Position numbers and translations under genes: made by a program. From positions 1 through 41,470 of the IMG/VR virus record IMGVR_UViG_2690316195_000001: a stretch of DNA of 41,470 nt; one strand, written 5' to 3'. Below, piece after piece: positions 1 to 40,312 of this stretch (its first letter is position 1; every line of letters starts with the position of its first letter). The stretch comes from a virus. Its lineage: Duplodnaviria; Heunggongvirae; Uroviricota; Caudoviricetes. The notes under the pieces are model-generated. The model was not told the DNA's origin and did no database searches. It worked only from the letters and a program-made list of their open reading frames with translations.

Positions 1-1248
1 ATGGCACTGAATATTCCATTCAGAAATGCGTACTATCGTTTTGCATCCAGTTACTCATTTCTCTTTTTTATTTCCTGGTCGCTGTGGTGGTCGTTATACG
101 CTATTTGGCTGAAAGGACATCTAGGGTTGACAGGGACGGAATTAGGTACACTTTATTCGGTCAACCAGTTTACCAGCATTCTATTTATGATGTTCTACGG
201 CATCGTTCAGGATAAACTCGGTCTGAAGAAACCGCTCATCTGGTGTATGAGTTTCATCCTGGTCTTGACCGGACCGTTTATGATTTACGTTTATGAACCG
301 TTACTGCAAAGCAATTTTTCTGTAGGTCTAATTCTGGGGGCGCTATTTTTTGGCTTGGGGTATCTGGCGGGATGCGGTTTGCTTGATAGCTTCACCGAAA
401 AAATGGCGCGAAATTTTCATTTCGAATATGGAACAGCGCGCGCCTGGGGATCTTTTGGCTATGCTATTGGCGCGTTCTTTGCCGGCATATTTTTTAGTAT
501 CAGTCCCCATATCAACTTCTGGTTGGTCTCGCTATTTGGCGCTGTATTTATGATGATCAACATGCGTTTTAAAGATAAGGATCACCAGTGCGTAGCGGCA
601 GATGCGGGAGGGGTAAAAAAAGAGGATTTTATCGCAGTTTTCAAGGATCGAAACTTCTGGGTTTTCGTCATATTTATTGTGGGGACGTGGTCTTTCTATA
701 ACATTTTTGATCAACAACTTTTTCCTGTCTTTTATTCAGGTTTATTCGAATCACACGATGTAGGAACGCGCCTGTATGGTTATCTCAACTCATTCCAGGT
801 GGTACTCGAAGCGCTGTGCATGGCGATTATTCCTTTCTTTGTGAATCGGGTAGGGCCAAAAAATGCATTACTTATCGGAGTTGTGATTATGGCGTTGCGT
901 ATCCTTTCCTGCGCGCTGTTCGTTAACCCCTGGATTATTTCATTAGTGAAGTTGTTACATGCCATTGAGGTTCCACTTTGTGTCATATCCGTCTTCAAAT
1001 ACAGCGTGGCAAACTTTGATAAGCGCCTGTCGTCGACGATCTTTCTGATTGGTTTTCAAATTGCCAGTTCGCTTGGGATTGTGCTGCTTTCAACGCCGAC
1101 TGGGATACTCTTTGACCACGCAGGCTACCAGACAGTTTTCTTCGCAATTTCGGGTATTGTCTGCCTGATGTTGCTATTTGGCATTTTCTTCTTGAGTAAA
1201 AAACGCGAGCAAATAGTTATGGAAACGCCTGTACCTTCAGCAATATAG
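1..1248 (+). CDS. cscB: Sucrose:H+ symporter, LacY-family MFS permease (host gene, outside prophage)
   Basis: 415-aa ORF from the track, hydrophobic multi-TM composition, clear LacY-family character; N-terminus MALNIPFRNAYYRF matches CscB as I recall it. Internal ORFs on other frames treated as spurious. Confidence 0.8.
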   Translation: MALNIPFRNAYYRFASSYSFLFFISWSLWWSLYAIWLKGHLGLTGTELGTLYSVNQFTSILFMMFYGIVQDKLGLKKPLIWCMSFILVLTGPFMIYVYEPLLQSNFSVGLILGALFFGLGYLAGCGLLDSFTEKMARNFHFEYGTARAWGSFGYAIGAFFAGIFFSISPHINFWLVSLFGAVFMMINMRFKDKDHQCVAADAGGVKKEDFIAVFKDRNFWVFVIFIVGTWSFYNIFDQQLFPVFYSGLFESHDVGTRLYGYLNSFQVVLEALCMAIIPFFVNRVGPKNALLIGVVIMALRILSCALFVNPWIISLVKLLHAIEVPLCVISVFKYSVANFDKRLSSTIFLIGFQIASSLGIVLLSTPTGILFDHAGYQTVFFAISGIVCLMLLFGIFFLSKKREQIVMETPVPSAI

Positions 1249-6793: not shown

Positions 6794-7264
6794 CTAATAA
6801 AACACCCAGTTTTCTGTTTCTTGGTTGTGTCCAAAGTTATATTCAATATCTGGTGTTGATGTATCAATATTCTTCATCCCATCAACAAGAGTTGATACAA
6901 CAGCCAAATCTTGTTTGATTCTCATTAAATGGTATTTCTTCCGGCGCAATAAACTTTCAATGGCAAGTTTCTTCGTTGGGAATGCAAAAGATCTTTCTGC
7001 ATTTTTTGCTACTTTCTTAATTGCATATCTATTTCTCTTTTGTTTCCATTCCTGTAACCACTGATTTGGTGCTGGTTTAAAATTAACAATCCAATGCGCA
7101 GGAACCAACCATGCATAATGCTCTGTCTGATGAAAAGCTATATATTGAAGTGCGAATATTTTGATTCCATCTTCTTCAACTGTCGCCTGGAATCTCCAGA
7201 AAACAGGCATTCCATCATGTTCAGTTTCTGATTCAGGAAAAGGTACGCTCCATGATTTTGTCAT
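6794..7264 (-). CDS. Hypothetical protein (156 aa), AT-rich island gene A
   Basis: Track ORF with GAGGTGAG RBS; strongly AT-rich relative to flanks; no recognisable domain. Confidence 0.6.
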   Translation of the reverse strand: MTKSWSVPFPESETEHDGMPVFWRFQATVEEDGIKIFALQYIAFHQTEHYAWLVPAHWIVNFKPAPNQWLQEWKQKRNRYAIKKVAKNAERSFAFPTKKLAIESLLRRKKYHLMRIKQDLAVVSTLVDGMKNIDTSTPDIEYNFGHNQETENWVFY

Positions 7265-7312: not shown

Positions 7313-7338
7313 AAAAATAAAGGCCGACTATGCGGCCT
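7313..7338 (-). terminator. Rho-independent terminator between island genes B and A
   Basis: Stem AGGCCG/CGGCCT (7321-7326/7333-7338), loop ACTATG, adjacent plus-strand A-tract 7313-7320; stop codon of gene B sits in the loop. Confidence 0.5.
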
Positions 7339-7951
7339 CGGAAGGAAGTCCAATCATCTTATTCAAATCTTCTACCCGTAAAGCAGGAAGTGCTGTACTT
7401 GCTTTATCTGCTTCTTTTGGTAGCAATTCTTTGCTTTCAGGCCAAACTTCAATAAGTCGCTTAACTGTTGTGACTGAGTTCAAAGCAGCCCATACATTTG
7501 ATTCGATATCCTTTTTCTTGGCTTCAAGTTTTTGTTGCAATGCGCAGATTTCATCAAACCTTTTTGTTATTTCGTGTTCTGCGCTAAACATGCATTTATC
7601 TTCGTTCGGAGTAGGGAGCAATATATCTTCGCCGTTGCCGTCTTTCCCATATGAAAGCCATCCAACCCTTCTGCCAGATACAGTAAGATAAATTGAAGTA
7701 GAACGAACATCGTATGAGTAAAATGAACATCCCATCTTTCCAAGTTCTTCACTTATAGCTACCAACTTGGATGATAACTGATCCACTTCCTCAGTTTTCT
7801 TTTTACCGCCAAACGCAATAACTCTGGCGTCAAGTGCAAGCTGGTTCTTTAACTTTGTTACTTCTTCAAGTTCAGTGAAAACCCCAGACTTAATTAAAGC
7901 GTTACGAGCGATTTCCTCTTTCATTCTCGTAGTTAAGCGGATTGATGACAT
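7328..7951 (-). CDS. Hypothetical protein (207 aa), AT-rich island gene B
   Basis: Track ORF trimmed to MSSIRLTT with GAGAGGA RBS; AT-rich; predicted coiled-coil segments; no recognisable domain. Confidence 0.6.
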   Translation of the reverse strand: MSSIRLTTRMKEEIARNALIKSGVFTELEEVTKLKNQLALDARVIAFGGKKKTEEVDQLSSKLVAISEELGKMGCSFYSYDVRSTSIYLTVSGRRVGWLSYGKDGNGEDILLPTPNEDKCMFSAEHEITKRFDEICALQQKLEAKKKDIESNVWAALNSVTTVKRLIEVWPESKELLPKEADKASTALPALRVEDLNKMIGLPSEAA

Positions 7952-8133
7952 ATTAATTCCTCTCAAATAAGTGGTTTGCTGCCTAATTTCATTTTCTGGC
8001 GGCCTGAGCATGCCACACCCATTTCACTGCGTGGCTTGCGGTAGTAAAGATTGTGCCTGTCTTTTAACCACATCAGGCTCGGTGGTTCTCGTGTACCCCT
8101 ACAGCGAGAAAAATAGTAAAATCCTCTCACCCC

Positions 8134-8496
8134 TTATTTTGTCAGGGGGATATCTCCTTCAGTTCTGACCATTCGCCTTAATACTTTCCTTAAGTCGATG
8201 TAAAGTTGAAGGTCTCCATTTGCTGCGGCATCAGCCATTTTTTGCCTGACAAGCAGTAATGTTTCATACGGCTCAATAAGAATATCGTCATGAGTAATTA
8301 GGTGAAGCGTTGCCGCATCAACTATTCCTAGAGCTGCGCCAAGTATCAAAAATTCCCTGCTATTTTTGTCGCATGAGGAGATAAGCGTATTTAGCGCATA
8401 CCTAATATTCTTTATAGCTGTTGTTAATGCTGCAATTTCTTCTATGGCGTCTTCTTCAATGAGCTTTTTAAGCTCATATTTTTCTTCCTGACCCAT
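8134..8496 (-). CDS. Hypothetical protein (120 aa), AT-rich island gene C, immediately downstream of N
   Basis: Track ORF trimmed to MGQEEKYELKK with GAGG RBS; no recognisable domain. Confidence 0.5.
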   Translation of the reverse strand: MGQEEKYELKKLIEEDAIEEIAALTTAIKNIRYALNTLISSCDKNSREFLILGAALGIVDAATLHLITHDDILIEPYETLLLVRQKMADAAANGDLQLYIDLRKVLRRMVRTEGDIPLTK

Positions 8497-8498
8497 AA

Positions 8499-8771
8499 TT
8501 ACCTCGCCGTCAGTTGTTTTGATTTCCGGTAGCCTGCCGCGTAAATAGCTACGTTTGGCAGGCAAATACTTCCACTGCATTCATCTGCCTTCTTGCAGCG
8601 AAGGCTTCCGAGTGATGCTGCTTTATCTGCTCTGACGCAACCAGAGAGCTTTAGCGCAATTTTTCGCGCCAGTCGCTGCTCTTGCATTGCCTGTTCACGT
8701 TGAGCCTGTCTGCGTGCTCTGCGGCGATTTCTGGCGTTATCGTCAGCCAGATATGTAATGACTACTGTCAT
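8499..8771 (-). CDS. N: N-like transcription antiterminator (P22 gp24 type)
   Basis: Arg-rich N-terminus (NARNRRRARRQAQREQ) and C-terminus ...LPNVAIYAAGYRKSKQLTAR resembling P22 gp24 as recalled; GGAGG RBS; downstream of nutL. Confidence 0.8.
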   Translation of the reverse strand: MTVVITYLADDNARNRRRARRQAQREQAMQEQRLARKIALKLSGCVRADKAASLGSLRCKKADECSGSICLPNVAIYAAGYRKSKQLTAR

Positions 8772-9345: not shown

Positions 9346-9714
9346 TTAGTCAGCGAAGGTTAAGACGAGAATTACCTTAATGATGTCTGCTACAACAGAC
9401 ACGGCCATAGATAAACCAAAGACGATCCAAGCCACAGTGATGTCTTCACTACCATCGTATAGAGTTCCGTAATCACTGGTGTAAGGCGTAAATGTCGCGC
9501 CTTGATACAATAGGTATAAGCTTGATCCATAGAGGATAAATGCAGATATCCCTTGTATTGCTATGATCACAAGAATCATGAAACGAGCTGATCTATGCGC
9601 CCAAGCCTGGCTTATTTTTTCTGATAGAGATTTCGCAATAAAAGCATGCGCTAAGCCGTAAATTGTCGAGATTGCCAACATCCCAAAAAAGCTTGCTATA
9701 GCGGTTCCAACCAT
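9346..9714 (-). CDS. Small multi-pass membrane protein co-transcribed downstream of cI (122 aa from the ATG at 9714; a TTG at 9735 is an alternative start)
   Basis: Three to four hydrophobic helices; AAGGGG RBS before the ATG at 9714; stop of cI directly upstream on the same strand. Confidence 0.6.
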   Translation of the reverse strand: MVGTAIASFFGMLAISTIYGLAHAFIAKSLSEKISQAWAHRSARFMILVIIAIQGISAFILYGSSLYLLYQGATFTPYTSDYGTLYDGSEDITVAWIVFGLSMAVSVVADIIKVILVLTFAD

Positions 9715-9731
9715 AAGCGCCCCTTGCGTGA

Positions 9732-13662: not shown

Positions 13663-13694
13663 AGGCCTGCTGGTAATCGCAGGCCTTTTTATTT
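13663..13694 (+). terminator. Rho-independent terminator after the replication genes (tR2-like)
   Basis: 8-bp stem AGGCCTGC/GCAGGCCT, 8-nt loop, then TTTTATTT. Confidence 0.6.
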
Positions 13695-13709: not shown

Positions 13710-13916
13710 GTGGTTGAGTTGATTTTCTCTGCATTGAGGCTTCTCGGTGCTCTGTGGATGGTGGCGACGTTCATTGTGGTTGCTGGCTGTTTTGTCCGGT
13801 TGGTAGGCGAAGGTAAAGACCTGGTGGGTGTGCTTTTCGGTAGCATTTTCCTGTGGGTGATTATCGGTGTTATGCCTGTCGCTGTAGCAAAAATGGCGTG
13901 GCGTTTTGTGAGTTGA
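13710..13916 (+). CDS. Small hydrophobic membrane protein (68 aa, GTG start)
   Basis: Track ORF with GGGGGAGAG RBS; two predicted TM segments. Confidence 0.45.
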   Translation: MVELIFSALRLLGALWMVATFIVVAGCFVRLVGEGKDLVGVLFGSIFLWVIIGVMPVAVAKMAWRFVS

Positions 13917-13933
13917 GCTGAGGGTAAGTACCG

Positions 13934-14209
13934 ATGGACGAATCAAGAAAGCAGTTTTTGGAGTTCGCGAAAAAGCAAAATTTAAGCCTTGCATATGGTG
14001 ATTGCGGGTATGTTTATTCATCCACGGAAATGGCATGGAGGGCATGGCAGGCATCTCGCGCAGCTATTGAAATAACCACGCCAAAGTTTATCGACAGCAG
14101 AGAAGCATTAGCCAAAGGGTTTACTGTTGATTATTCCAATGGCTTCGGTGATGCAATGGATGCTTATGAGGAAAACATCCGCGCTGCTGGAGTCAAAGTG
14201 AAGGAGTGA
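13934..14209 (+). CDS. Hypothetical nin-region protein (91 aa)
   Basis: Track ORF with GAGGG RBS. Confidence 0.55.
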   Translation: MDESRKQFLEFAKKQNLSLAYGDCGYVYSSTEMAWRAWQASRAAIEITTPKFIDSREALAKGFTVDYSNGFGDAMDAYEENIRAAGVKVKE

Positions 14210-14211
14210 GT

Positions 14212-14376
14212 ATGAGCGCATACGAAGAAATCATGTTAGCCCTGCGATTCTTTTTCGGTGTGGAAGAAGATGAAAACGTAAATGAGATTATCGGGCAAGA
14301 CCATGACCCGATAGGGACTATTGCAGCTGCACTTGACGATTACAGGAGCGTAAATGGTGAGGAAACTAACGTTTGA
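14212..14376 (+). CDS. Possible small protein (54 aa), not in the ORF track
   Basis: ATG 6 nt after an AAGGAG RBS; overlaps the ninB start by 23 nt. Confidence 0.3.
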   Translation: MSAYEEIMLALRFFFGVEEDENVNEIIGQDHDPIGTIAAALDDYRSVNGEETNV

Positions 14377-14797
14377 ACTAAGAAGCCCCATCCATCAGCA
14401 GAACGCCATTCAAGCTATCCAGCAAATCCTTCCAGACCCAACCAAACCAATCGTAGTAACCATTCAGGAACGCAACCGCAGCTTAGACCAAAACAGGAAG
14501 CTATGGGCCTGCTTAGGTGACGTCTCTCGTCAGGTTGAATGGCATGGTCGCTGGCTGGATGCAGAAAGCTGGAAGTGTGTGTTTACCGCAGCATTAAAGC
14601 AGCAGGATGTTGTTCCTAACCTTGCCGGGAATGGCTTTGTGGTAATAGGCCAGTCAACCAGCAGGATGCGTGTAAGCGAATTTGCGGAGCTATTAGAGCT
14701 TATACAGGCATTCGGTACAGAGCGTGGCGTTAAGTGGTCAGACGAAGCGCGACTGGCTCTCGAATGGAAAGCGCGATGGGGAGATCGGGCTGCATGA
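14354..14797 (+). CDS. ninB: NinB (Orf-family recombination mediator)
   Basis: Near-identical to lambda NinB by recall (KLTFE.RSP.HQQNAI.A.QQILPDPTKPIVVTIQERNRSLDQNRKLWACLGDVSRQVEWHGRWLD...). Confidence 0.9.
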   Translation: MVRKLTFELRSPIHQQNAIQAIQQILPDPTKPIVVTIQERNRSLDQNRKLWACLGDVSRQVEWHGRWLDAESWKCVFTAALKQQDVVPNLAGNGFVVIGQSTSRMRVSEFAELLELIQAFGTERGVKWSDEARLALEWKARWGDRAA

Positions 14798-15321
14798 CTA
14801 TCAAATCAAATACGCCAGCACACGACAAGGACTGCTGGCAAACGCCGCTTTGGCTTTTTGATGCACTGGATATTGAGTTTGGATTCTGGCTGGATTCGGC
14901 AGCGAGCGACAAAAATGCTCTGTGCGCTCACTGGCTAACTGAGGCCGACGACGCGCTCAATTCTGAGTGGATAAGCTACGGTGCAATCTGGAATAACCCA
15001 CCTTACAGCAATATCAGACCGTGGGTGGAAAAAGCCGCTGAGCAGTGCATACAACAGCGACAGGCGGTAGTGATGCTTGTGCCAGAGGATATGTCAGTCG
15101 GATGGTTCAGCAAGGCTCTGGAGAGTGTCGACGAAGTTCGCATTATCACTGATGGACGGATTAATTTTATCGAACCATCGACAGGGCTGGAGAAGAAGGG
15201 AAACAGCAAAGGCTCCATGCTGCTGATTTGGCGACCGTTCATCAGTCCTCGACGGATGTTTACTACCGTATCCAAAGCGGCATTGATGGCGATCGGGCAG
15301 GGCGTCAGGAGGGCGGCGTGA
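14794..15321 (+). CDS. Phage Dam-like DNA N6-adenine methyltransferase
   Basis: 175 aa from [22 protein letters not shown]; catalytic NPPY motif (IWNNPPYSN); ATGA overlap with ninB. Confidence 0.8.
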
Positions 15322-15500
15322 GGCGACAGCGACGAAGTATCACCGACATCATCTGCGAAAACTGCAAATACCTTCCAACGAAGCGCTCCAGAAATAAACG
15401 CAAGCCAATCCCAAAAGAATCTGACGTAAAAACCTTCAACTACACGGCTCACCTGTGGGATATCCGGTGGCTTAGAGAACGTGCGAGGAAAACAAGGTGA
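15318..15500 (+). CDS. ninE: NinE
   Basis: GTG start; [51 protein letters not shown] matches lambda NinE by recall. Confidence 0.8.
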
Positions 15501-15667: not shown

Positions 15668-16382
15668 GTTAATAAATGGCAATGCCATCAAAATGACAAG
15701 CATTGAAATTGCTGAGTTGGTTGGTAAGCGTCATGACAATGTGAAACGTACCATCGAAACGCTGGCTAAAAATGGTGTTATCCGGCTTCCTCAAATTGAG
15801 GTTTCCGAAAGAATCAATAACTTAGGGTTCAATGTTCAGTACGAGCATTACGTCTTCGAGGGCGAACAAGGTAAGCGAGACAGTATTGTCGTTGTTGCCC
15901 AGTTGTCGCCGGAATTCACCGCTCGCCTTGTTGACCGCTGGCGAGAGCTTGAAGAAGCTGCGGTTAATATCCCAAAAACGCTACCAGAAGCGTTGCGCCT
16001 TGCTGCTGACCTTGCTGAGCAGAAAATGCAACTGGAAAACCAGCTCGCAATTGCCGCACCTAAAGTTGAGTTTGCCGATCGCGTTGGCGAGGCCAGCGGA
16101 ATTTTGATTGGAAACTTTGCAAAGGTTGTTGGAATTGGTCCAAACAAACTGTTTGCGTGGATGCGCGATCACAAAATCCTTATTGCTTCAGGTTCCCGGC
16201 GCAATGTGCCAATGCAGGAATATATGGATCGCGGCTATTTCACAGTGAAAGAAACAGCGTTCAACACAAATCACGGAATACAGATATCGTTCACCACAAA
16301 AATCACCGGGCGTGGTCAACAGTGGCTGACCAGAAGGCTGCTCTATAGCGGAATGCTGAAAGTAACAGGGGAGGCTGCTTAA
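15660..16382 (+). CDS. Rha-family regulator / antirepressor (N-terminal Rha domain, C-terminal ANT/KilAC domain)
   Basis: N-terminus NGNAIKMTSIEIAELVGKRHDNVKR typical of Rha; C-terminal half typical of the antirepressor ANT domain. Confidence 0.75.
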   Translation: MNELINGNAIKMTSIEIAELVGKRHDNVKRTIETLAKNGVIRLPQIEVSERINNLGFNVQYEHYVFEGEQGKRDSIVVVAQLSPEFTARLVDRWRELEEAAVNIPKTLPEALRLAADLAEQKMQLENQLAIAAPKVEFADRVGEASGILIGNFAKVVGIGPNKLFAWMRDHKILIASGSRRNVPMQEYMDRGYFTVKETAFNTNHGIQISFTTKITGRGQQWLTRRLLYSGMLKVTGEAA

Positions 16383-17031: not shown

Positions 17032-17216
17032 ACGCCACAATTCAAACGATACCAGAGCTTCTTATCCAGACACGAGGCAATCAGACCGAAGTGGCGAGGA
17101 TGCTTTCCTGCGCAAGAGGAACAGTGCTCAAGTACAACCGAGACAGCAAAGGCGAGCGTCACGTAATAGTTAACGGCGTCCTGATGGTCAAACAGGGCAA
17201 GAGGGGAAGACCATGA
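17028..17216 (+). CDS. ninH: NinH-like small DNA-binding protein
   Basis: ...GNQTEVARMLSCARGTVLKYNRD...VIVNGVLMV resembles lambda NinH (GNQTEVARRLKCSRGTVRKY). Confidence 0.7.
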   Translation: MNATIQTIPELLIQTRGNQTEVARMLSCARGTVLKYNRDSKGERHVIVNGVLMVKQGKRGRP

Positions 17217-17836
17217 GACTCGAAAGCGTAGCTAAATTTCACTCGCCAAAAAGCCCGATGATGAGCGACTCACCACGGGCTACGGCTTCTGACTCTCTTT
17301 CCGGTACTGATGTGATGGCTGCTATGGGGATGGCGCAATCACAAGCCGGATTCGGAATGGCTGCATTCTGTGGTAAACATGAACTCAGCCAGAACGACAA
17401 ACAAAAGGCTATCAACTATCTGATGCAATTTGCACACAAGGTATCGGGGAAATACCGTGGTGTGGCAAAGCTTGAAGGAAATACTAAGACAAAGGTACTG
17501 CAAGTGCTCGCAACATTCGCTTATGCGGATTATTGCCGTAGTGCCGCGACGCCGGGTGCAAGATGCAGAGATTGTCACGGTACAGGCCGTGCGGTTGATA
17601 TAGCCAAAACGGAGCAGTGGGGGAGAGTTGTTGAGAAAGATTGCGGAAGATGCAAAGGTGTCGGCTATTCAAGAATGCCAGCAAGCGCCGCATATCGCGC
17701 TGTAACGATGCTAATCCCAAACCTTACCCAACCCACCTGGTCACGCACTGTTAAGCCGCTGTATGACGCTCTGGTGGTGCAATGCCACAAAGAAGAGTCA
17801 ATCGCAGACAACATTTTGAATGCTGTCACACGTTAG
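17213..17836 (+). CDS. Q: Late-gene antiterminator Q (lambda type)
   Basis: 207 aa, MRLESVAKFHSPKSPMMSDSPRATASDSLSG... essentially identical to lambda Q by recall. Confidence 0.95.
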   Translation: MRLESVAKFHSPKSPMMSDSPRATASDSLSGTDVMAAMGMAQSQAGFGMAAFCGKHELSQNDKQKAINYLMQFAHKVSGKYRGVAKLEGNTKTKVLQVLATFAYADYCRSAATPGARCRDCHGTGRAVDIAKTEQWGRVVEKDCGRCKGVGYSRMPASAAYRAVTMLIPNLTQPTWSRTVKPLYDALVVQCHKEESIADNILNAVTR

Positions 17837-37586: not shown

Positions 37587-37619
37587 AAGGGCGAATACCG
37601 CCCTTAGCTTATTTTTTTA
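37587..37619. terminator. Bidirectional rho-independent terminator between convergent tailspike and gtrC
   Basis: Stem AAGGGCG/CGCCCTT, loop AATAC, with A-rich 5' flank and T-rich 3' flank. Confidence 0.6.
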
Positions 37620-38880
37620 TTATATCTAAATACCATCCTGAGTGTGGTAGTGTGTGCATTTTCACGCGGCTCCCTGGCTCTGCTGTCTCATATTTGTATG
37701 CCTCTTGCACCCATCCATTGTTAGGTCTTTTTTCAATTTTAAAGCTAACAATTCCAGATAGAATTACTGAGCAAGCCACTATGCAAAATGCTAATTTCTT
37801 TACATGCCCATGAAGCATATTAGTGAATGCTAGAAGTATCGACACCCAAAATATGGCCGGTATGACAAAATACCTTTGTCCTGGTCCTATTTGTAAGAGA
37901 GGCCATTGAGGCTGGTCTCTTGCAATGACTGGTCTGGCAAGGGCAAATCCCAACATAAGATAAGGAAAAATCACTAATGCTTTTTCTTTCCAGTTCCCTT
38001 TTAATAGCACGTATGCACTAATTGATAGGCCACATAAAGAAACAAAGTAATTTAAAGCATGCAGATCCCACACCTTTCTTGATAAGCTCTCGCTAAGAAA
38101 TGAGCCAAGGAATACTCTGGAGGATAGTATATCCATCAAAATACCTACACCTGCACCAAGTGGCGCGGTCGGTCGAGAGCCTTTAGAAGAGAGAAGTATG
38201 GCGGCTATCTGAATTAAACACACTATTGCGAAAGTTATGTAGAATAAGTTTAAGTTTCTGAATGCATTTTTTACTGCATTGATAGGAGTTTTTAGAATAT
38301 CTCCGTTTGTAATTCTTAGTAAGGCAACAGGAGCTAAAAAAACAATGAATGGCCCACTTAGGCCAGCCACAACCATCACCAAAAAGTCGTGTGCTTTCCA
38401 ATATAATCCATCAGTTCTATCTGCTACCAGCACCAAGAATAGCCATATTGCCATATACCAATGAGTGTTGGTTACGTTGGCATGCACCTCTTCAAGGTGT
38501 GGCATAGTTAAAATGAAGATTGAAATTAATATTCTTGGATATATAGAAACGCTTTTGAATCTATTAGATAGTATGAAGGTTATTATTACGCATCTTATCG
38601 ATAATGCAATAACAGTGAAAATAAAAGGTGATAGATATAATGGGAACAGCATGGAGAATGTCGCAACAAGTTTTGAAATTGTCTGATAGTAACCATCCTG
38701 TACTAAAATTATAGATTTCAGAGGGCCCAATGCATAAGCCTGACCAAGCCATACCCGTCCATCCTCTGCCCATAGTTGAGGGTGTGAAATAATATCAGGA
38801 CGACGCATGCAGAATATGATGAAACATATAACAAATATAATCAAAAACAAAAATATTCTGTTTGTGTTTATGCTATTCAT
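37609..38880 (-). CDS. gtrC: GtrC-like serotype-specific O-antigen glucosyltransferase (polytopic membrane protein)
   Basis: 423 aa, about 10 TM segments, AT-rich; ATGA overlap with gtrB; third gene of a gtrABC-type operon. Confidence 0.65.
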
Positions 38881-39800
38881 GATTGTTCCTTTTTCTTTAA
38901 AATATATCGTGGTCTGCATTTTACTTCCACATAAATTCTTCCTATATATTCACCAAGTACACCGATACCGATAAGTTGAATACCTCCAAGGAAAAGAATG
39001 GAGACCAATAACGATGGATATCCACGAACAGCATTGCCGAATACAAGCGTGTCAAAAATCATCCATGCACCATAAAGAAAAGCAATTCCAGCAACGAACA
39101 ATCCGATATAAGTCCACATGCGCAGCGGGAATGTTGAGAAACTGGTTATCCCCTCAAGGGCAAGGTTCCACAGTTTCCATCCGTTAAATTTAGTGCTGCC
39201 TGCGACTCGTTCTGCTCGTGCATATTCAACGACATCGGTGCGTCCGCCAACCCAGCTCAGCACGCCCTTCATAAACAGGTTGCGCTCTGGCATGAGCTTA
39301 ATGTTTTCCACCACCTCGCGAGACATCAAGCGGAAATCACCAACGTTTTCCTCGATCTGCGGGTTGCTAATTTTGTTATGCAGCTTATAGAACCACTCGG
39401 CGGTTTTCCTCTTCAGTCTGCCATCCGTTGATCGGTCAGATCGTTTAGCAAGCACCATATCGGCACCTGCTTGCCACTTTTCAATCAGATGAGGAATAAC
39501 CTCAATCGGGTCTTGCAGGTCAACATCAATAGGAATAACAGCATCGCCTGTTGCATGGTCTAACCCTGCGAATAATGCTGGTTCTTTACCAAAGTTTCGT
39601 GTAAATGACAGCGGAACAACTAGAGGATCTGAAACAGCCAGAGCATTAATAATTGACTCCGTAGCGTCTTTGCTGCCGTCATTTATGAAAACAATTTCCA
39701 CTTCGTATGGCTTCAACTCTTCGAATTCACGTACCGTTTTATAAAAAATTGGTATTGCTTCTTCTTCATTGAAGACAGGAACTACAAGAGATATCTTCAT
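38877..39800 (-). CDS. gtrB: GtrB bactoprenol glucosyltransferase (GT2 family)
   Basis: 307 aa; GT2 motifs ([19 protein letters not shown]-x-D region) plus two C-terminal TM helices. Confidence 0.9.
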
Positions 39801-40159
39801 TTCGCATCCCTAAAGACAATGAACTTTGAATAGACGAAACCGCACACAAGACTGATGGCTGAGAAGGTGATGAGAGTGACAATTGGAGGAAGTGAACATC
39901 TATCAGCAGCCCATCCAACAGTTGCACTCAGTGTTCCCATGAACCCGACATATAACATGTAGCGCATCGTTGTAGTTGATGCTTTGAATGTGAATTTTGC
40001 ATTCGCGAAGAAGCTAAAACTCACAGCCACAACAAAACCTGCGAAGTTTGCAAGAGCTTGGTTTGTATGCGCGACATAGATACATACACCAAAAACCACC
40101 CAGTGTATAAGTGTGTTCAGCACACCAATCGAGGTGTACTTTGCAAATAGCTTTAACAT
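39797..40159 (-). CDS. gtrA: GtrA flippase (GtrA/DPMS2-family small membrane protein)
   Basis: 120 aa with four TM segments; ATGA overlap with gtrB. Confidence 0.85.
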
Positions 40160-40312
40160 TTCTTCTATCAGCTAATAATCAAAGGCATGAAGTCTATCAT
40201 CCAAGTCTCAATCGATCGATGACTTGCTGTGGTTGATGAGACAAAACTGATGCACACAAAGCTTTGCACTGGATTGCTAGACTTTGCGCTCTTCGATAGT
40301 GGTTAAGGTGGA

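Follow-up and report, generated by a model that had tools for sequence, protein, structure and literature searches.

An orphan PF05869 N6-adenine methyltransferase in the nin region of an HK620/P22-like lambdoid phage genome, probably directed at GATC

Phages with a methyltransferase of demonstrated dam-like activity include VT-2, and of these enzymes only those of T2 and T4 are homologous to host Dam (PMC7139368). M.EcoVT2Dam, the orphan methyltransferase of prophage VT2-Sa, is "known to target 5'-GATC-3'" (PMC6602927, citing Radlinska & Bujnicki 2001). Virion DNA of P22 and lambda is under-methylated at GATC, with replication outrunning host Dam (PMC8022706), while unmethylated GATC is a substrate of MutH, and enterobacteriophages show counter-selection of GATC (PMC5014478). 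The enzyme described here belongs to Pfam family PF05869, as does the Dam of the virulent siphovirus T1 (M.EcoT1Dam, YP_003925; PF05869 at 1.7e-70), with which the HP1/HP2 Dam group is classed as a close known system. Biochemical work by Scherzer, Auer and Schweiger reportedly characterized T1 Dam as a GATC enzyme.

We analyzed a window of 41,470 nucleotides, meaning the whole stretch of DNA examined here, which represents an HK620/P22-like lambdoid genome. An integrase gene and a gtrABC-like cluster occupy its right end. The early genes comprise N-like, cI, cro, cII, O and P, followed by a terminator-like hairpin, three small ORFs, ninB, the methyltransferase gene, ninE, ninF, roi/ant, ybcO, rusA, ninH and Q (17213..17836), and thereafter by the lysis and then the P22-type morphogenesis genes. 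The methyltransferase gene is thus placed as nin genes are, on the pR strand between P with its tR2-like site and Q, and it shares overlapping stop and start codons with its neighbors (Table 1). A sequence-only reading had described a 175-aa N6-adenine methyltransferase with an NPPY motif between ninB and ninE; both its position and its identity are borne out, the latter by family profiles that match over their full length.

The reading frame is intact, extending from the ATG through 175 codons to a TGA at 15319-15321. The list of ORFs also offers an in-frame GTG at 14734, which would yield a version of 195 aa. We preferred the ATG because homologues are 175 aa long and begin with MTIKSNTP, and because GGGGAG lies 10 nt upstream of it. 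The overlaps with ninB and ninE bear out the proposed translational coupling as an arrangement of codons, but not as a trait peculiar to this gene, since ATGA overlaps are the rule in nin regions (PMC8022706). The start codon of ninE is GTG in the window (15318..15320) and ATG in both VT2-Sakai and HK620, the difference amounting to GCA becoming GCG in the final methyltransferase codon, where it is synonymous. One GATC site is found at 14783, between the Shine-Dalgarno-like element and the methyltransferase start, and another at 15291, 27 nt before the ninE start.

Table 1. Positions in the window of the methyltransferase gene, its motifs, its expression signals and its neighbors
Feature	Position	Strand	Remarks
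Intrinsic-terminator-like hairpin and T-run, strong	13663..13686	+	Just 3' of gene P, at the tR2 position; compare the tR2 annotation of HK620
ninB, upstream neighbor	14354..14797	+	PF05772, 2.4e-54; orf-family recombination mediator
Shine-Dalgarno-like GGGGAG	14778..14783	+	10 nt before the methyltransferase ATG, within the 3' end of ninB
Methyltransferase CDS	14794..15321	+	175 aa, 19.7 kDa, pI 5.4; PF05869 / TIGR01712
ATGA overlap, methyltransferase start and ninB stop	14794..14797	+	Also the left edge of the mosaic module
WxTP motif, W15-Q-T17-P18	14836..14847	+	Precedes the N-terminal helix (19-29); T17 invariant, P18 at least 90% conserved
L33-D34-S-A-A37-S	14890..14907	+	On and just past strand 1 (31-34); D34 invariant, A37 at least 90% conserved
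NPPY codons, N68-P69-P70-Y71	14995..15006	+	Motif IV, catalytic / adenine-binding; immediately after strand 64-67
Residues 121-141	15154..15216	+	Long, conserved loop/hairpin joining two strands; invariant R122 and F125, with N137 at least 90% conserved
GTGA overlap, ninE start and methyltransferase stop	15318..15321	+	
ninE, downstream neighbor	15318..15500	+	PF05322, 3.2e-43

The protein matched PF05869, 'DNA N-6-adenine-methyltransferase (Dam)', over positions 1-167 of 169 (E = 9e-65; 217.9 bits against a cut-off of 28.1). It likewise matched the NCBIfam equivalog model TIGR01712, phage N-6-adenine-methyltransferase, over positions 1-165 of 165 (E = 3e-78; 261.1 bits against a cut-off of 97.05). 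PHROGs placed it in phrog_111, DNA methyltransferase, and the top PADLOC models were those for an 'orphan methyltransferase'. We aligned it with 50 diverse relatives (33-67% identity). T17, D34, N68, P70, R122 and F125 were invariant in the resulting 51-member alignment, while P18, F31, A37, W59, P69, Y71, L95, W104 and N137 occupied columns conserved in at least 90% of members. The window protein retained the family residue at all 15 of these columns, including those in WxTP, F..D..A, NPPY, GR..F and GN.KGS; loss of conserved residues, which had been named as the observation that would count against a functional methyltransferase, was therefore not seen at any of them. The segment L33-S38 is presumed to be the SAM-binding motif I, although it does not contain the usual GxG, and the WxTP resembles motif X of M.TaqI/EcoKI-type (gamma) amino-methyltransferases.

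AlphaFold2, run on the alignment, predicted a single Rossmann-type domain with high confidence (pLDDT 95.3, pTM 0.90). In this model WxTP is followed by the N-terminal helix, the strand comprising residues 31-34 bears D34, and a strand at 64-67 runs into NPPY. Helices and strands alternate beyond this point, interrupted by the long conserved loop at 121-141 (GR..F..GN.KGS), and the chain ends in a C-terminal helix. The predicted structure of the 175-aa protein contained no separate target-recognition domain; the 121-141 loop is a candidate for the element that would stack on the base and contact GATC. Neither a single-sequence search nor a search with the 51-member profile identified a solved structure related by sequence, and matches to Med31 structures were dismissed as chance hits through the string 'WCNPPYS'; no PF05869 member is represented among solved structures. 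By fold, the best Foldseek match in the PDB was the cap m6Am methyltransferase domain of PCIF1/CAPAM (6irv-6is0; E ~1e-4), with a TM score of 0.6 when normalized to the query and only 0.24 when normalized to the target. YfiC/TrmM-like and KsgA/DIMT1 tRNA/rRNA adenine methyltransferases followed, and giant-virus PCIF1-like proteins were also among the viral fold matches of the model. Although PCIF1/CAPAM is the closest solved fold, it is eukaryotic, much larger, acts on the cap-adjacent adenosine of mRNA, and has no significant sequence similarity to the window protein. An NPPY/F-type active-site motif is typical of the M.EcoKI/M.TaqI-type group of N6-adenine methyltransferases. Iyer et al. placed PCIF1 in this group, which they characterized by a helix conserved at the N-terminus and by degenerate elements near strand 3 (PMC4738411), a description that fits the predicted model of the window protein.

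The label 'Dam-like' that the gene had been given applies to activity, in that a GATC product is reported for its closest characterized relative, but not to ancestry. PF05869 was the sole Pfam family matched at E <= 0.01; there was no match to PF02086, the alpha-class family of E. coli and T4 Dam, and the model matched E. coli Dam (2g1p) only generically (Foldseek E 0.025, TM 0.35). E. coli and T4 Dam share with the window protein the reported G(m6A)TC product and orphan status; in contrast, they possess DPPY, FxGxG and an inserted recognition domain, while the window protein has NPPY and neither of the other two features, with only ~30 residues separating D34 from N68. No match was obtained to the beta class (PF01555, M.EcoGII type), whose motif order is reversed relative to that seen here, where the motif I-like D34 precedes N68 of motif IV. 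MT-A70 likewise gave no Pfam match, and METTL3-METTL14 structures were matched only at E >0.1 with a TM of 0.25.

M.EcoGII and Hia5/Hin1523 are, like the window enzyme, prophage-encoded orphan m6A methyltransferases and are thought to shield phage DNA; unlike it, they carry a recognition domain, measure ~300-350 aa, display no sequence specificity and fall outside PF05869. We accordingly rejected a kinship that would have put the specificity in doubt, both with Hia5/Hin1523, which are alpha-class, Dam-related enzymes with DPPY and FxGxG, and with M.EcoGI/GII, which are beta-class proteins of 349 aa with DPPY/FxGxG. M.EcoGV and gp5 of phage PA8 are prophage-borne in STEC and annotated as 'GATC adenine methyltransferase', and a gene of the M.EcoGV type can share one prophage with a copy of M.EcoVT2Dam (Phi14, strain 95NR1). 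They differ in being METTL3/14-like MT-A70 proteins with DPPW, encoded near int in the left arm of Stx phages. For this reason we also rejected a link between the nin gene and the Stx-phage '16S rRNA methyltransferase', which corresponds to gp5, a homologue of M.EcoGV encoded by the MT-A70 gene close to int.

The closest characterized relative was found in VT2-Sakai (NC_000902), whose orf32 product (NP_050531) is equal in length to the window protein and identical to it at 172 of 175 residues (98%). This gene lies between NinB and NinE and is the sole DNA methyltransferase annotated in that phage, from which we infer that it is M.EcoVT2Dam. The three substitutions (I60V, Y62H and A91T) all fall outside conserved columns, and the codon differences between the two genes comprise eight synonymous and three non-synonymous changes. 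Although the two loci agree in the ninB-ninE position and in the overlapping starts and stops, the VT2-Sakai gene resides in an Stx2 phage backbone rather than an HK620/P22-like podovirus, and the ninB allele upstream of it is unrelated. T1 Dam and the window protein share 33% identity and have the WxTP, DxAA, NPPY and GR..F..GN.KGS motifs in common. At 237 aa T1 Dam is longer, with an N-terminal extension of ~45 residues and, in the alignment, an insertion of 14 residues, and it is encoded outside any nin region. Based on the specificity reported for the 98%-identical enzyme, the target of the window enzyme is probably the adenine of GATC. The statement of the sequence-only reading that the target sequence was unknown is therefore outdated, given the 172/175 identity to orf32 and the membership of T1 Dam in the same family.

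A three-way alignment with VT2-Sakai and HK620 revealed how the gene is set into its surroundings. In HK620 the methyltransferase gene is absent and ninB is joined directly to ninE. The window and VT2-Sakai are ~98% identical in DNA sequence from the exact start of the methyltransferase gene, whereas their ninB alleles are only ~51% identical, and the alignment with HK620 resumes at the ribosome-binding site of ninE. This switch in identity, together with the rejoining of HK620, indicates that the gene is a discrete mosaic module with its junctions at gene boundaries, which is the usual pattern of mosaicism in nin regions. VT2-Sakai carries a Lar-like restriction-alleviation gene (15792..16034) directly upstream of ninB and close to the methyltransferase gene, so that its nin region holds two functions connected with restriction evasion; at the equivalent position (13710..14376) the window has three small ORFs with no function assigned.

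Elsewhere in the window, a full-length LacY-family sugar/H+ symporter (PF01306, 1.7e-193) is encoded at 1..1248 (+), from base 1 and adjoining the integrase end. It is annotated as 'sucrose transport protein' or 'sucrose permease' in the related phages vB_EcoP-611R6 and 683R2, and a metabolic transporter is unusual cargo for a P22-like phage. The leftward early region contains, beside the N-like gene, an Nmad5 gene at 7328..8011 (-) ('nucleotide modification associated domain 5', PF18757, 5e-72; phrog_1965). This may be a second nucleic-acid-modification gene or a defence/counter-defence gene; it is flanked by ORFs with no assigned function at 6794..7264 (-) and 8134..8580 (-), and no PADLOC match was obtained there. 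The gtrABC-like O-antigen modification cluster (37609..40159, -) consists of a 120-aa ORF, a family-2 glycosyltransferase and a 436-aa ORF that matched no Pfam family. GATC sites occur at 40214 and 40311 in the intergenic region upstream of it (40160..40312). Broadbent et al. (2010) reportedly observed Dam/OxyR-dependent phase variation of the gtr operons of P22-like phages.

The gene is widespread. DNA copies 95-99% identical to it were present in 244 of 50,697 phage records, and among the records listed with annotation every copy lay beneath NinB and/or NinE annotations. Of 5426 complete E. coli genomes, 1566 (~29%) carried copies, with up to five per genome, and more distant relatives extended to 2124 phage records and to 8549 protein clusters at 50% identity. 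The identical protein is already present at NCBI as phage N-6-adenine-methyltransferase, on at least 73 contigs. Few accessory genes of lambdoid phages are as common or have been known for as long, and the gene is already annotated. Its discovery value is correspondingly small, the exact protein having been deposited and named and the 98%-identical enzyme reported as cloned and assigned to GATC.

With respect to expression, the N-like, cro, cII, O, P and Q genes stand in lambda order, and the position of the terminator at the site of tR2 suggests that the nin region, methyltransferase gene included, depends on antitermination by N, and no promoter-like site was found between this terminator and the methyltransferase gene. 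With respect to the substrate, the window contains 90 GATC sites against 183 expected under a Markov model, a ratio of 0.49. Ratios elsewhere were 0.59-0.60 in VT2-Sakai, which has the gene, 0.55 in the retrieved part of HK620, a phage without the gene, and 0.78 in T1. Similar depletion in HK620 makes this measure uninformative for the role of the methyltransferase, and we rejected it as functional evidence (0.55 in the HK620 part compared with 0.49-0.60 where the gene is present). Five GATC sites are clustered at 9424-9730, just downstream of cI, and CTAG occurs in the window at 0.26 of its Markov expectation.

We considered whether the enzyme acts mainly during lysogeny, as an epigenetic regulator that supplements host Dam and thereby stabilizes lysogeny or alters host or prophage expression, for example through gtr phase variation. 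Maintenance of lysogeny by the Stx phage 933W is cited as requiring host Dam, and a Phi24B protein that goes by the name 'Dam methyltransferase' is reported to be expressed in lysogen cultures (PMC3342100); in addition, the gtrABC-like cluster of the window has GATC sites upstream. However, a gene that sits in the pR operon behind a tR2-like terminator and lacks its own promoter-like site should be repressed by cI, and since E. coli hosts already methylate GATC, an enzyme of the same specificity would add little in a slowly replicating lysogen. A regulatory role of this kind is therefore unlikely. The specificity itself could also be questioned. Over-expressed Dam-type enzymes can methylate off-target, and a 'GATC methyltransferase' label resting on over-expression may, by analogy, mislead. 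Such a case is PA8 gp5, which requires the partner PNB-2, prefers 16S rRNA, and proved to act mainly as a 16S rRNA methyltransferase (PMC10810198). If the same held here, GATC methylation would be a side activity seen on over-expression, and the main natural substrate would not be duplex GATC DNA but RNA or single-stranded DNA, or else another or a looser DNA motif, possibly with a partner protein directing the enzyme. The order of the closest solved folds (PCIF1/CAPAM, then TrmM and DIMT1/KsgA) and a model with no recognisable target-recognition domain are consistent with such a substrate. Yet the precedent comes from another family, with DPPW and MT-A70 rather than NPPY and PF05869. Moreover, the similarity to PCIF1 reflects a shared NPPY/F amino-methyltransferase core, as the low target-normalized TM score indicates, and the VT2 and T1 enzymes, at only 33% identity, are each reported to methylate GATC in DNA. 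We consider a main natural substrate other than duplex GATC DNA quite unlikely.

The same two structural observations, PCIF1 as the nearest solved fold and no recognition domain, make it conceivable that the enzyme does more than top up GATC methylation. It might work with the adjacent recombination genes (ninB/orf and rusA), for instance through methylation of recombination intermediates that are single-stranded or hemimethylated, which would keep MutHLS from aborting recombination between diverged mosaic phages, or it might also methylate RNA. In either case the nin-region methyltransferase would contribute to the mosaicism of phages or to the control of translation, and not to anti-restriction, a proposal that we regard as highly doubtful. 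That the gene is an inactive remnant riding in the mosaic nin region would agree with the dispensability of nin genes in the laboratory and with the existence of HK620 without it. We nevertheless give this view very little credence in light of the intact frame, the retention of family-invariant residues, the predominance of synonymous differences from VT2-Sakai and the confidently predicted fold. As for a restriction-modification system of which the gene would be the modification half, its endonuclease lying elsewhere or having been missed, two weak PADLOC matches to type II methyltransferases (5.8e-07 and 2.6e-05) point in that direction. The neighboring genes from O/P to Q are, however, all ordinary lambdoid genes, with standard nin genes on both flanks, and no endonuclease was found among them, in agreement with the sequence-only reading, which had noted no cognate restriction gene nearby. 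Furthermore, PADLOC returned no match to a defence or endonuclease partner among the larger unassigned ORFs of the window, the order ninB-methyltransferase-ninE recurs in hundreds of phages, and the orphan models outrank those of type II; a restriction partner is thus extremely improbable.

Taken together, these findings favor, with a probability of roughly 0.8, a single-domain, SAM-dependent orphan enzyme of the PF05869/TIGR01712 family that forms m6A in GATC, is the orthologue of M.EcoVT2Dam, is carried as a mosaic module of the nin region, would be expressed in dependence on N, and would top up the GATC methylation of phage DNA. Following the lambda paradigm, transcripts from pR would reach the gene only once N had carried them past the terminator behind P; the gene would hence be silent under cI repression in the lysogen and yield a delayed-early product, translated within a tightly packed string of overlapping genes. 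The enzyme would supply GATC methylation where phage DNA is copied too fast for scarce host Dam to keep pace. GATC sites methylated in full would be immune to nicking by MutH and to restriction enzymes that cut the unmethylated sequence, and would not rely on whether the next host has Dam.
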